Shown here piece by piece: positions 31,691 to 38,321 of a DNA stretch of 64,000 bases. Origin of the DNA: Eledone cirrhosa (Eukaryota); NCBI GenBank assembly GCA_964016885.1, contig OZ024743.1:348130001-348194000 (forward strand). Direction: 5' to 3'. The notes below the pieces were generated by a model. The model saw only the letters and a program-made list of their open reading frames with translations, was not told where the DNA came from and searched no databases. The translations under genes and the position numbers were made by a program. Position 1 is the first letter of the stretch. Every line of letters begins with the position of its first letter.

Positions 31691-33478
31691 GCTTTCTGTA
31701 TGTGATGATTATGAAGATTAATGGAGAATATAAAGCAAGGTCATTTAACTATAAAGCCTAAGACTACGCATGCACCCACACATGCACAATTATGCTTATG
31801 TCAGTGTTTTAGTTTTCGAAGCATGTTAAAATATGTTAAAGCTATTAATTGTATATAGTTGCGGTTTTTGAAAAGAAATATTTTTCCGAGCTATAGAGCA
31901 GTACTTTTAGTTATTTATCTTAAAAAAGATAAATATCTATATATAAATATATATACATACATATATAGATATATATATACATATATATATATATATACAT
32001 ATATATATATATATACATATATATATATATATACATATATATATATATATATATACATATATATATATATATATACATATATATATATACATATATATAT
32101 ATACATATATATATATACATATACATATATACATATATATATATACATATACATATATATATATACATATATATATATATATATATATACATACATATAT
32201 ATATATATTTACATATATATATATACATTTATATATACATTTATATATACATATATATATATATATATATATACATATATATACATATATATATATATAT
32301 ATATATATACATATATATATATATATACATATATATATATATACATATATATATATACATATATATATATACATATATATATATACATATACATATATAC
32401 ATATATATATATATACATATACATATATATATATATACATATATATATATATATATATATATATATATATATATACATACATATATATATATATATACAT
32501 ATATATATAGTTATACTTGGGGAGGGTCATATTTGCGTAATATTGCCAGAATAAATAACAGAACACACTCACTGTTTGGTTGGTTTTCGCTTCTCGCTGT
32601 CTTTTATTATATCTGCGATCTAACTTACTCGGTCCTCAATGTTGCCATTGACTGACCGGCGGTCAAAAATAATACAGATACAATATAGACACAAACACAT
32701 ATATATATATATAGTTTACATAATTTACATAAATCTTTCGTTGCACATCTGCAACATCGTCAGTGGTGTTATATTCATTGTTCCTCCTGTTGTGTTGTAT
32801 GTCTACGCCATTTTTTTTTGTTCAGTCTGTCTATATATTTATTTATTTATTTGCTTGTTTGTTTATCTTATTTTATTTGTCTTCTTTGCGCATGCGTTTG
32901 CGTGTGTGTATAGTGTTATGTGTGATGTGTGACTAGTGTGTATAGTGTTGTGTCTGCTGGGTGACTAGTGTGTGTTTATGTGCTTGTTGTTATTGTGCTT
33001 GTGTATGTATTTATTTATCTTATTTTATTTAATTTTATTTACTTATTTATACTTCTCTTAGGTCAGTGTTGTTTGTTTAGGTGTTGTTGTTGTTCCACTC
33101 ATTCTTTCTGTTTAGCTTTGGTCTTCTAATTTCTATTTCACTGGCCTCTCTGATTTGCCTATCTGCTGGGTCATTCCTATGTTTAGATATTATTCTAATT
33201 TCTATGTTGTCTATGTTACCGTCATGTTGTTGTCTAGCATGTTCGTATAGTACTGACCCGTTTTTTCGTCCTTTTAGTTCCCCCCAGTGTTGGTCTATCC
33301 TTTCACCTATGCTACGAGCTGTCTCACCTATGTATGTTGTTGTCATGTTTCTGCAAGTACCCTCTGTACATCTTATGCTATAGACTACGTTTCTAGTTTT
33401 ACAGTTTATCCGGGGTTCACCTTACATATGATACAATTCCTATTGGTACAGTGGGTTTTCTTAAAAGGGTAGGTTTTA

Positions 33479-34147
33479 GAAAAGTATAAGACCCTCATAG
33501 AACTGGACATGAAAGGAATCTGCCCACTATACAGGAGCAAATCATGGAATAGCTTAGATAGGGCTAGACATAAGATAGGGAAGGCCACATCATGGTACGA
33601 CAACCAGAGATATCAGAGTGTCATGTTTGTGGACGCCACCCCTGGAGGGAAATTAGCTAACCAGTGTAGAAAGGCCCTGAGAAAGACCCACTTAAAAATA
33701 AAGGTGGTAGAAAAGCCAGGAACCACCATAAAATCCCTGATCAGCAAAACCTACCCTTTTAAGAAAACCCACTGTACCAATAGGAAGTGTATCATATGTA
33801 AGGTGAACCCCCGGATAAACTGTAAAACTAGAAACGTAGTCTATAGCATAAGATGTACAGAGGGTACTTGCAGAAACATGACAACAACATACATAGGTGA
33901 GACAGCTCGTAGAATAGGTGAAAGGATAGACCAACACTGGGGGGAACTAAAAGGACGAAAAAACGGGTCAGTACTATACGAACATGCTAGACAACAACAT
34001 GACGGTAACATAGACAACATAGAAATTAGAATAATATCTAAACATAGGAATGACCCAGCAGATAGGCAAATCAGAGAGGCCAGTGAAATAGAAATTAGAA
34101 GACCAAAGCTAAACAGAAAGAATGAGTGGAACAACAACAACACCTAA
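33479..34147 (+). CDS. PLE ORF C-terminus: RT thumb remnant, Cys-rich linker and GIY-YIG endonuclease (5'-truncated)
   Basis: Open frame from 33479. Motifs: CTNRKCIIC, NVVYSIRC...YIGETAR.IGER..QH, RQIREA, LN. Confidence 0.9.
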   Translation, partial: EKYKTLIELDMKGICPLYRSKSWNSLDRARHKIGKATSWYDNQRYQSVMFVDATPGGKLANQCRKALRKTHLKIKVVEKPGTTIKSLISKTYPFKKTHCTNRKCIICKVNPRINCKTRNVVYSIRCTEGTCRNMTTTYIGETARRIGERIDQHWGELKGRKNGSVLYEHARQQHDGNIDNIEIRIISKHRNDPADRQIREASEIEIRRPKLNRKNEWNNNNT

Positions 34148-34455
34148 ACAAACAACACTGACCTAAGAGAAGTATAAATAAGTAAATAAAATTAAATAAA
34201 ATAAGATAAATAAATACATACACAAGCACAATAACAACAAGCACATAAACACACGCTAGTCACCCAGCAGACACAACACTATACACACTAGTCACACATC
34301 ACACATAACACTATACACACACGCAAACGCATGCGCAAAGAAGACAAATAAAATAAGATAAACAAACAAGCAAATAAATAAATAAATATATAGACAGACT
34401 TAACAAAAAAAAAATGGCGTAGACATACAACACAACAGGAGGAACAATGAATATA

Positions 34456-35290: not shown

Positions 35291-38200
35291 ATATTTATTA
35301 AAATAACAGATTAAAGTTTAAGCAAAGAATCGCTGCTTTCACCCTTAACGGGATCTTCTGAAACTAACAAAGTCAATCTGTAAACGCAGAACTGGATATT
35401 TCAAAAAACGTTGCAACCGGAGGAAGACAGGAAGACGATACTTTGGTTCGTGGAAACGTTCGCTGGCAAAGAACGGGAAAAAACGAATAATACGTCATTA
35501 ATAGGAGCGGTGAAAAACAATTACGTGCAAAGACAGAACCACGTTTATGGTATAAAAGAGGTCGTAGACTAATGTTCTCTTAGGTGGTGCATAGAGACGT
35601 TATCTGGCAATGAACGAAAAAACGAAGATAATAAGTCATATGTGGAGCGTGGAGAACAATAGCACGCAAAGACAAAACCACGTAAACGGTATAGCAGAAG
35701 TCGTAGACTAAAATACTAACTAGGAGACCAAATGAATCTCCGCTACAGAGTTAAGAACAAAGTAAATAAATACAATACAGAAGTAATAGAAATAAATAAA
35801 TACATACACGCAAACAGATACGTACATACACAAGCATCCGCAAAACCTTACCATAGGTATACGAAACCACGCACATATAAATATGTGTGTGTATGTATGC
35901 TTGTGTACAAAGAAATAAATAATTATATAAACGTATATAAGTAAATAAATACGTATATAACAAGCGCACGCACATACCTGCGAATAAATACACGAAAGTT
36001 CGGAGACGTAAGTCAACTAAAACAAGAAGTACACATATACACACACCCACCATACGTACGAACCTGCATACTCACGCAGACGCAAAACTCCCGTATACAC
36101 ATATCTAAAGCCTAAATACCAGAATATGTAAAAATTCCCCAACGCGGGCGGTGGTTTGTACCGTGACGATGGTCTTTTGACCATGACTAAGTGCGGACCT
36201 CGTCCTTGCGACAGGTTCAGAAAAGAACTCACAGCCTTCTTTAAAGGCTTCAACCTCTCTATACAGGTTGAGGACAATCTCTCGGTCGTTAATTACCTCG
36301 ACGTTAACCTCAATTTATTGAATGGGTTGTATTACCCGTATAGAAAGCCGAATGATACGCTTATTACATAAGTAAGCATTCCAACCATCCTGCCAGCATA
36401 ACCAAGAACCTGGTAAAAAACGTTTCGTTGAGGCTTTCCCGTCTTTCCACCAACGAGCGCATTTTCAACGACCATTCCACTTATTACAATGAAGCTCTTG
36501 CTCGAAGTGGATTTGTCGATAAAGTAGCTTATACAGAGTACGAAAATAGACCTAGAAGAAATAGATCCCGTCGCATTTGTTGGTTTAACCCACCATATAA
36601 TATGGAGGTGGCCACACCATTAGCTAAGATCTTTCTTTCCCTTATTACGAAGCATTTTCCCCCTACACATAAATATAGTAAAATTTTTAATAGAAATACT
36701 ATTAAAATGTCTTACTCTACGACTCCTAACCTTGCACATAATATCACAGCTTCAAAGTTAGCTAAACTACCTAGCCGTAGGAACACGTGCAACCCTGTAG
36801 TTAGTACTAACTGTAATTGTAGGAATCGGGCTGATTGCCCCCTATCCGGGAAATGCCTCTCTAGTAACTTTGTCTACAAATGTAAGGTTGTAACACCCAC
36901 GTCCCGTAGGGCCTACATAGGGTTAACCGCCAATAGTTTCAAGCAGTTTCCTTTCGTTACCCTCTAAGAAGGAATATGACGTCACTTTCAGCTTATATCT
37001 GGAGTCTAAAAGACAACCACACCCAATATAAGTTACACTGGGAGATCCTAGCTAGGGCTAGATCGTATTACGGAAATAAAAGACCATGTGACCTCTGCGC
37101 CGCTGAGGCCCTGGAATTATTCTACGCCACAGACCACATCTTAAACAAAAAATCCAAGGCAATTTCGGCTTGTAAACATAAATTGCACAAAACTTTCCTG
37201 TATTACAGCCCCACTTTATACCCCACCGGATAGCACGATCTATACGTGGATATTTTACGTCTTGATGCGGGAGCTAAGTATATGTTTTGTTTATTCCTTT
37301 ACTTATTTGCATAGGTAAGTATATATTACCCGTATGTTTTGTGAAGATTGTATACCTTCTCGTACGTATATTTGACTGTTATGGCGAATAATTTTTACAT
37401 ATTCTGGTATTTAGGCTTTGGCTATGTGTATACGGGAGTTTTGCGTCTGCGTGAGTATGCAGGTTCGTACGTATGGTGGGTGTGTGTATATGTGTACTTC
37501 TTGTTTTAGTTGACTTACGTCTCCGAACTTTCGTGTATTTATTTGTAGGTATGTGTGTGCGCTTGTTATATACGTATTTATTTACTTATATACGTTTATA
37601 TAATTATTTATTTATTTGTACACAAGCATACACACACACACATATTTATATGTGCGTGGTTTCGTATACCTATGGTAAGGTTTTGCGGATGCTTGTGTAT
37701 GTACGTATCTGTTTGCGTGTATGTATTTATTTATTTCTATTACTTCTGTATTGTATTTATTTACTTTGTTCTTAACTCTGTAGCGGAGATTCATTTGGTC
37801 TCCTAGTTAGTATTTTAGTCTACGACTTCTGCTATACCATTTACGTGGTTTTGTCTTTGCGTGCTATTGTTCTCCACGCTCCACATATGACTTATTATCT
37901 TCGTTTTTTCGTTCATTGCCAGAGAACGTCTCTATGCACCACCTAATTGAACATTAGTCTACAACCTCTTTTATACGATAAACGTGGTTCTGTCTTTGCA
38001 CGTAATTGTTTTTCACCGCTCCTATTAATGACATATTATTCATTTTTTCCCGTTCTTTGCCAGCGAACGTTTCCACGAACCAAAGTATCGTCTTCCTGTC
38101 TTCCTCCGGTTGCAACGTTTTTTGAAATATCCAGTTCTGCGTTTACAGATTGACTTTGTTAGTTTCAGAAGATCCCGTTAAGGGTGAAAGCAGCGATTCT

Positions 38201-38321
38201 TTGCTTAAACTTTAATCTGTTATTTTAATAAATATTTGCTCTACGGTTCTTATATATTTGATATATATTTATCCTTATCGAGCCCTCTTTGGATTTTAGT
38301 CTTCAAATTTATTATTATTAC
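35291..38321 (+). mobile_element. Penelope-like element PLE-2 (Nematis type), 5'-truncated with an 846-bp inverted arm
   Basis: Arms are 35291-36136 and 37390-38235, with an 86-bp unduplicated tail. The pLTR has an internal tandem duplication of about 140 bp. (TA)n lies on both sides. Confidence 0.92.
36138..37233 (+). pseudogene. PLE RT (YRDD) and GIY-YIG endonuclease, frameshifted
   Basis: Motifs: GLYRDDGL, VNYLDV, PYRKPN, WFNPP, CNC....CPL.G.C, VYKC...YIGLT, CDLC..E. The frame breaks near 36370 and 36950. Confidence 0.9.

Follow-up and report, generated by a model that had tools for sequence, protein, structure and literature searches.

A 64,000-nucleotide (nt) stretch of the Eledone cirrhosa genome (contig OZ024743.1, positions 348,130,001 to 348,194,000; hereafter the window) contains two neighbouring Penelope-like elements (PLEs), PLE-1 and PLE-2. 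Each comprises a 5′-truncated body with a tail on one side only and, head to head with the body, an inverted segment, or arm, that repeats part of it. The ends fall on two sites: an inner site, at which the arm stops, and an outer site, which marks the end of the tail. The window is AT-rich, with 88 (TA)n blocks, and both elements lie within such repeats. All counts below are drawn from the window and from public contig runs X1 and X7 aligned to PLE-1. The two elements are laid out as follows (window positions throughout):

31929-32509, unstranded: left (TA)n target array, with C variants on the plus strand
32510-33477, minus strand: inverted segment, or arm, of PLE-1, whose 3′ end lies at the inner site; it includes a portion of the endonuclease frame, and a predicted hammerhead core at 32763
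33478-34715, plus strand: PLE-1 body, 5′-truncated; GIY-YIG frame 33473-34147 with CX4CxxC linker, then a terminal repeat with a predicted minimal hammerhead core at 34462
34716-34777, plus strand: PLE-1 tail, lying within an open frame from the ATG at 34695, of which it covers codons 8-27
34778-35290, unstranded: (TA)n array separating PLE-1 and PLE-2, C polarity as in the left array
35291-36136, minus strand: PLE-2 inverted segment, 846 nt, stopping at the inner site
36137-38235, plus strand: PLE-2 body, beginning just before the reverse transcriptase (RT) motif YRDD; CxCX5C linker, frameshifted GIY-YIG-type end and a 139-nt tandem repeat in the 3′ region
38236-38321, plus strand: PLE-2 tail, 86 nt, followed by (TA)18

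The PLE-1 arm is the reverse complement of 33746-34715, with 963 of 970 alignment columns identical, and the body extends 61-62 nt beyond the point at which the arm stops, to 34777. The PLE-2 arm forms an inverted match of 846 nt with 37390-38235, at 98% identity.

PLE-1 is predicted to carry a C-terminal GIY-YIG endonuclease domain. A structural model of its frame (pLDDT 89) best matches the GIY-YIG domains of I-TevI and UvrC (TM score 0.75 by target, probability 1.00); the best E value in this fold search was 0.004, with none at 0.001, and a sequence search of the PDB gave only a match to I-TevI at E 0.16. The frame is 57% identical to an RT-containing protein of Octopus vulgaris, a species in which Penelope-like families have been recorded (PMC13282606). 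Across 35 sequences Y124, G142 and R151 of the endonuclease are invariant and Y140, E202 and N214 nearly so; C128, H155, H171 and H176 are likewise invariant. The linker reads CTNRKCIIC at residues 101-109 (CX4CxxC), and by linker and Cys/His motif the element is classed as Neptune/Nematis-type, two groups that these features do not separate. In the copy itself truncation has removed the RT. YxDD is present in its homologues, and RVT_1 matches, weak and below the cut-off, occur in two of the ten long homologues scanned.

PLE-2 retains GLYRDDG and the CxCX5C linker CNCRNRADC (frame 36356-36967). YRDD and the linker recur in most of the 14 homologues listed, and RWK and DKT motifs in many; the window copy is truncated before the RWK/DKT region, and its GIY-YIG end is assigned by motif and homologues. 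Judged by its linker motif and its insertion into (TA)n, PLE-2 fits the Hydra clade. A Pfam search of seven window frames, those of PLE-1 and PLE-2 included, returned nothing useful. The tandem duplication in the PLE-2 3′ region (37815-38082, mirrored at 35444-35711) consists of units 78% alike, and lies where a hammerhead would be expected.

Masked self-comparison combined with a survey of TA edges yielded eight head-to-head loci from six families: the two coding PLEs and four short families, A, B, D and E. The eight are PLE-1, PLE-2, a small PLE-2 copy, two copies of A, one copy of B, and single loci of D and E; they are listed below together with the copies of the same families that have no inverted partner.

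41317-41515, minus strand: short PLE-2 head-to-head copy; tailed body 41317-41475 (minus), arm to ~41515 (plus), 5-nt overlap and 17-nt spacer at the junction
11152-11257, plus strand: tail-only PLE-2 piece, spanning from the inner to the outer site and flanked on each side by TA
29911-30215, minus strand: solo PLE-2 copy, outer-site end
30695-30854, plus strand: solo PLE-2 copy, outer-site end
55061-55939, plus strand: solo PLE-1-family copy, diverged (~72%), inner-site end, without inverted partner
52555-53114, plus strand: solo PLE-1-family copy, diverged (~71%), predicted hammerhead core at 52869, full tail, outer-site end
5961-6016, plus strand: tiny solo PLE-1-family copy, ending 2-5 nt beyond the inner site
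1766-1947, plus strand: family A copy 1; a 3-nt spacer separates the 56-nt arm from the body, which carries a 67-nt tail; the hammerhead core at the centre is truncated
23947-24143, plus strand: family A copy 2; an 8-nt spacer separates the 61-nt arm from the body, which again carries a 67-nt tail
4903-5935, plus strand: family B copy 1; 1.84 copies of a 560-nt unit in direct tandem, a predicted hammerhead core in each unit (5105, 5665), without arm
51642-52091, minus strand: family B copy 2; 425-nt body across the unit junction, predicted hammerhead core at 51768, ~26-nt arm, 4-nt spacer
55953-56131, plus strand: family D; a 12-nt spacer lies between the 31-nt arm and the body, which has a 105-nt tail; the family has this one locus, in which no hammerhead core was seen
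8927-9782, plus strand: family E; tail-less segment 8927-9399 (minus, 473 nt, across the junction of a ~430-nt unit), tailed segment 9400-9782 (plus), predicted hammerhead core at 9479

Each of the eight loci contains an inverted, 5′-truncated segment whose sequence repeats that of the body, the 3′ ends adjoin (TA)n, and in all eight the two segments of the pair stop at different sites. The arm is nested within the body in seven; the exception is E, in which the tail-less segment is the longer and extends beyond the 5′ limit of the tailed one by 187 nt. The segments of E differ from each other by 8%, and those of PLE-2 by 1.8%. In family B copy 2 the ‘tail’ is not a short extension but 396 nt of permuted tandem unit, and its inner and outer site cannot be told apart; it is 82% and 76% identical to copy 1 on the two sides of the unit junction and, because it spans that junction, the 560-nt unit must have been passed on as a tandem. 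Several side observations belong here. The last 12-13 nt of the tail-only PLE-2 piece are duplicated, as they are in the copy at 29911. In family A all four 5′ ends lie no more than ~10 nt from the point where the hammerhead core begins (1815-1830, 24000-24020), which suggests a fixed RNA start or a stall of the RT. Families also adjoin within one TA array at three places: PLE-1 with PLE-2 (32510-38321), the solo PLE-1-family copy with D (55061-56131), and B with the PLE-1 stub (4903-6016). The same microsatellites have thus been targeted repeatedly.

An earlier note on this DNA had proposed a common insertion rule comprising variable 5′ truncation, an arm ending at a fixed site and a one-sided tail; D, E and the tail-only piece are additions to the loci on which it drew. 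Much of its anatomy holds. The 846-nt PLE-2 arm and the small arm near 41514 both stop at taataaatat, and the family A arms stop at homologous points (1766-1768 and 23947-23951), both copies having a 67-nt tail. The PLE-1 arm ends at gtataac, and 55939 is indeed the same base, but it belongs to a solo copy with no inverted partner within 3 kb upstream. The family B ends at 5931-5935 and 52087-52091 are likewise homologous, although the first closes a direct tandem and not an arm. The body does run past the end site of the arm in PLE-1, PLE-2, A and D, but in E it is the longer segment that lacks the tail. Of the arm lengths given, 19 to 970 bp, the upper figure stands; the shortest measured is ~26 nt, and no 19-bp arm was found.

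The ends cluster more than chance would allow. Each of the two coding families has two sites, 61 nt apart in PLE-1 and 86 nt apart in PLE-2, and these account for all five PLE-1 ends and all seven PLE-2 ends. Against a null of uniform ends within 300 nt the clustering has P values of 4e-4 (PLE-1) and 3e-6 (PLE-2), and with ends restricted to blocks of TA microhomology it still has 0.006 and 2e-4. For family A taken alone the claim is weak (P 0.04 under the uniform null; 0.34, not significant, under the microhomology null), and D and E are single loci. The inner site of PLE-1 is supported beyond the window by a PLE-1 copy in an X7 contig that ends at 34720 and passes into TA, and by segments in X1 contigs that end at 34714 and 34718. 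These runs consist of contigs for which the listed joints and loose ends are incomplete, and PLE-1 positions 34174-34403 were left out of the alignment. Summed depth in X1 climbs towards the 3′ end of PLE-1 and differs little between the stretch just ahead of the tail and the tail itself (1.77M and 1.52M), although such depth is no measure of copy number. Exact-pattern scans of metagenome contigs for the PLE-1 and PLE-2 ends found none. Inner-site ends also occur without a partner, in the solo and tandem copies that end at 55939, 6016 and 5935.

The proposed enrichment of insertions in (TA)n was confirmed: of 23 PLE-type 3′ ends, picked by hand from the self-comparison and the TA-edge survey, 22 have (TA)5 within 8 nt, compared with three of 29 other repeat ends (within 15 nt) and 2% of background positions. 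The control ends include those of a SINE-like family (short interspersed element; ~190 nt, copies 86-96% alike) found at 18473-18788, where two copies form an inverted pair, 21248-21445, 23706-23814, 25842-26036, 61575-61662 and 63315-63429. The arrays that flank PLE-1 contain 38 C and one G on the left, and 21 C and no G on the right, on the same strand. This shared polarity indicates one pre-existing TA array split by the insertion, and on the same ground the possibility that the flanking TA was added by the RT was rejected. At the junctions with the target, six of 11 tail-less ends show 3-5 nt of TA microhomology; two PLE-1 ends show none, yet share one base across copies ~72% alike. No TA is present at any arm-body junction.

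Two further points concern the sites themselves. The note placed one of the two starts at the 3′ region of the RNA. The RNA probably does not end at the outer site, however, and both sites look internal to it, since the outer site of PLE-1 lies 27 codons into an open frame and the E unit runs 47 nt past its outer site. The PLE-1 tail frame is open in two copies (63 of 81 nt alike) and 11 of their 18 differences are at third positions (P 0.014), so that the tail is likely the start of the element's open reading frame (ORF), as in the elements PAc and Pen2a_Av. A shared RNA structure in the tails was considered and rejected: five of seven regions fold no better than shuffles, and only those of D and E fold beyond them (z -3.2 and -3.7). 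The second point is that ‘arm at the inner site, body with tail’ is a tendency and not a law, given that solo copies end at either site, that the longer segment of E is the tail-less one, and that an X1 contig appears to pass the inner site (see below).

Evidence that the two segments arise together comes from their sequence and their lengths. In PLE-1 the arm agrees with the body at 21 of the 23 variable sites listed for X1 in that region (of the aligned contigs, only 2850 of 12789 are at least 99% alike), and in family A each arm resembles its own body; together these observations imply that every insertion generates its arm afresh, from the source that also supplies the body. Arm and body lengths are tightly coupled (rho 0.95, permutation P 0.0006, eight loci) and lie within 22 nt of each other in five of the eight (P 0.001). 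The combination of different end sites in all eight loci with coupled lengths argues for one event on one RNA rather than for two independent RNAs. At PLE-1, family A copy 1 and family B copy 2 – three of four readable junctions – the arm and body overlap by 0-1 nt, with no stem of primer length. Microhomology at the junction of the long PLE-2 copy may be 5 nt, as judged from one distant homologue (KFP motif).

The mechanism that best accounts for these data, and which we favour with moderate confidence, is that two cDNAs are primed from the two strands of the target on one RNA, at two internal sites, and are then joined head to head. Both nicked strands of a (TA)n target would prime reverse transcription of the same RNA, each strand with its own start, the inner site for one and the outer for its partner. 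The cDNAs would grow toward each other, giving the head-to-head geometry, with the trailing enzyme displacing the first cDNA; both would usually stop near the same break or obstacle in the RNA, and their 3′ ends would be joined with 0-5 nt of microhomology. Capture of a single cDNA would leave a solo copy ending at either site, a cDNA stopping at the inner site would leave a tail-only piece such as that at 11152-11257, and the short tandem units of B and E would borrow the PLE protein in trans. Double initiation would thus explain the solo copies at either site, the tail-only piece, E and the 0-1-nt overlaps. It retains from the earlier note the two primings on opposite strands of (TA)n, which fit both the anatomy and published biochemistry. 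The comparison with twin priming can be kept in part. In L1 twin priming two non-overlapping parts of the RNA are copied and the second priming site is variable; the likeness lies in two primings on opposite strands and a 5′ inversion, whereas here the segments overlap, duplicating the same stretch of template, and both starts are fixed.

The main rival origin for the pairs, which we judge unlikely, is fold-back: a 5′-truncated cDNA begun at the outer site turns back (or an antisense template primes itself) and serves as its own template, a cut or a block at the inner site then ending the copy ahead of its joining to the target. Shared haplotype and coupled lengths would follow directly, as would the nesting of arm within body in seven of the eight loci, and the spacers of 3, 4, 8, 12 and 17 nt at five of the eight centres, as well as the 5-nt overlap in the small PLE-2 copy, are of the kind that fold-back leaves; junction palindromes have been read as signs of self-priming (PMC3846280) and the tail has been ascribed to resolution by the endonuclease (PMC8557442). 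The inner site, on the other hand, then needs a reason of its own, for it is used without a partner at 55939, 6016 and 5935, and in vitro both sites are RT starts (PMC11167929). E, with extra 5′ sequence on its tail-less side, fails to fit unless its centre was later deleted, the overlaps of 0-1 nt at three junctions leave little to prime from, and loops of 268 nt (PLE-1) and 1253 nt (PLE-2) would be required.

If instead two separate ribonucleoproteins with separate RNAs primed the two strands independently and the cDNAs were then joined, this would be the simplest extension of the in vitro data (both strands extended, no strand bias; PMC11167929), and would sit well with the arm-body differences in PLE-2 and E and with the large offsets in the two long loci. 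We nevertheless hold it to be improbable: it predicts neither different end sites in all eight loci (at most 0.5^8 = 0.004 if independent) nor coupled lengths, and it is at odds with the match of arm and body at 21 of the 23 variable sites, a match that RNAs drawn from a single source locus would produce as well. Inversions that arose after insertion or from a palindromic master copy, by recombination, cruciform repair or copying in the manner of miniature inverted-repeat transposable elements (MITEs), with end clusters reflecting AT-rich spots that pair with TA, are in our estimation very improbable. The TA microhomology of at least 3 nt at six of 11 tail-less ends is in keeping with such an origin, and palindrome centres are generally unstable. 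But the clustering of PLE-1 and PLE-2 ends survives the null that allows for microhomology alone, the two PLE-1 ends that lack it share a base in diverged copies, the arms of family A follow their own bodies while their centres differ, and the arm-body junctions contain no TA.

Several observations weigh against double initiation on one RNA. There are only eight loci from one window, in which family and length are confounded; with the five short loci alone the length correlation has P 0.04. The spacers at five centres are what fold-back predicts, and E, at 8% divergence, may owe its shape to a later deletion of its centre. In vitro, no difference between the strands in start site was reported (PMC11167929), so that published data do not require each strand to keep to one site. 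The tailed PLE-2 copies at 29911 and 30695 face each other head to head, 480 nt apart and 80.6% alike; we treat them as separate events, and were they one, the count of different end sites in all eight loci would fail. In a single X1 contig, positions 33488 and 34695 meet on opposite strands, and the shorter side comprises 71 letters. We take this joint, one of 15 listed with 11 more unlisted, to be a short segment that extends beyond the inner site, its far end being unseen. A comparison of the PLE-1 tail peptide with the N-termini of three long homologues gave no match (P 0.4-0.96), and the descriptor scan described next found no hammerhead core in PLE-2 or D.

Scanning the window with a hammerhead descriptor gave five strict and nine relaxed matches, compared with 0.05 in 40 shuffles. 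Of the nine, PLE-1-family segments and B hold three each and E holds one, the remaining two lying elsewhere. The PLE-1-family cores (34462, 32763 and 52869) have a 6-bp helix II with compensatory changes between copies; in family B the cores occur at 5105, 5665 and 51768, with a unit junction common to copies 76% alike; in family A the core is cut at its 5′ side. In families A, B and E the core is mismatched where helix II begins, at its base. Rfam returned no match for the PLE-1-family core at 52869 and none to a hammerhead for family B, whereas for family E, in which one of two cores is intact, it gave a weak match to HH9 (16 bits against 52, E 0.12); run on the whole window it gave, among the best 150 of 216 matches, only repeat-driven microRNA matches. 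The hammerhead assignments accordingly stand at the level of the motif, below Rfam gathering scores. Further predicted cores are found at 7087 (plus) and 41847 (minus), the first of which, with 6 bp in helix I and 4 bp in helix II, has the canonical form and belongs to a piece that ends at a TA run at 7287; a similar 15-nt motif after each core makes these two pieces probably further PLE end-pieces.

B and E are, as read from their motifs and arrangement, retrozyme-like tandem units with predicted hammerheads and the insertion signature of PLEs. The description of the short families as non-coding suits B, in which the longest frame from a Met codon has 36 amino acids (aa); E has one 98-aa frame of low complexity, broken in the other copy. 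That a single insertion route serves coding and short families, as first proposed, is supported by the resemblance of the hammerhead cores of A, B and E to that of the PLE terminal repeat. A broader reading, which we advance only tentatively, is that PLE integration generally is paired double initiation – a dimer on one RNA, using both sites that bound the tail on opposite strands of (TA)n – and that the retrozyme-type RNAs of B and E may enter by the same route and not by rolling circle.

The window contains other repeats. Decayed remnants of LINE-type RT (long interspersed element; a label taken from translation alone) lie at 53140-54658 and 6427-6975, ~75-80% alike, and MITE-like elements with imperfect terminal inverted repeats lie at 7462-7736 and 10683-11060, outside TA runs.

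Most of what is described here is known biology in new family members: the layout, the tail and the TA targeting are already published for PLEs, and the note's description of an inverted segment and a 3′ tail as hallmarks of these elements is borne out by the literature. Endonuclease-bearing (EN+) PLEs have an inverted 5′-truncated copy, a tail often at one end only, a preference for (TA)n and non-autonomous families (PMC8557442); inverted pseudo-long terminal repeats (pLTRs) with an optional tail extending the start of the ORF, and mobilisation of pLTRs in trans, have been described (PMC3846280); and inverted pLTRs with 3′ extensions are routine marks in curation (PMC8969392). With these the elements of the window share 5′ truncation, an inverted truncated copy at the 5′ end and a one-sided tail (PMC8557442; PMC3846280), and also partial tandems, junction palindromes, (TA)n targets for linker-bearing clades and a tail that overlaps the start of the ORF. 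They differ in their longer tails (61-105 nt as opposed to 30-40), in that no target-site duplication can be read inside TA, and in that no copy in the window is full-length. Hydra-clade PLEs have a CxCX5C linker and insert into (TA)n (PMC8557442 section 11), in line with the linker and target of PLE-2 and with the RWK and DKT motifs of its homologues; PLE-2 departs from them in that no canonical hammerhead was found in its 3′ region and its N-terminal motifs are cut off. The origin of the tandem and inverted ends of PLEs has been called unresolved (PMC8557442).

The closest biochemical parallel is Poseidon PAc of Anolis carolinensis, a PLE whose purified protein cuts and extends both strands in vitro, cleaves AT-rich DNA, has two internal starts that coincide with the ends of the tail and is predicted to dimerise (PMC11167929). 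In common with the window, as interpreted here, are the two internal starts bounding a tail within the start of the ORF, the AT-rich target, the cutting and extension of both strands and a hammerhead (predicted in PLE-1) in the repeat. PAc belongs to another clade, the linkers in the window being of Neptune/Nematis and Hydra type, and its starts are at RNA not homologous to the cut DNA, as distinct from the TA microhomology at tail-less ends seen here. The available text of that study does not derive the head-to-head product or the pairing of sites, reports no strand bias, and calls the later steps of integration unvalidated (PMC11167929). No paper stating the paired-site model was found among the papers searched on PLEs with twin priming, cryo-EM or dimers, and self-priming, a collection that lacks most subscription papers and all supplements.

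Minimal hammerheads, with opposite-strand pairs 100-700 bp apart, have been defined (PMC4209133), as have non-LTR (long terminal repeat) retrozymes (PMC7229834; 10.64898/2026.07.22.740005), which are tied to PLEs by distribution and phylogeny. B and E resemble the latter in that their tandem units are short and have a predicted hammerhead core of type I, in which helix III is small and palindromic, and B in having no long ORF. Their units are longer, 560 nt in B and ~430 nt in E compared with ~300 nt in the published accounts, and they show the inverted segment, fixed ends and TA target of PLEs, features absent from the portions of the retrozyme accounts available; the accessible text of the preprint 10.64898/2026.07.22.740005 uses neither ‘tail’ nor ‘target site’, and has ‘inverted’ only in a reference.

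What may be new is the pairing of the two sites on one RNA and the presence of the PLE signature on retrozyme-like units. The window offers mechanistic hints of the former in segments that are paired at different fixed sites and coupled in length. B and E, bearing that signature, give structural support to the mobilisation of retrozymes by PLEs, argued so far, in the available text, from phylogeny (10.64898/2026.07.22.740005). If double initiation on one RNA is true, then a single reaction would yield the whole set: inverted pLTRs, tails on one side only, solo copies that stop at one site or the other, and tail-only pieces.

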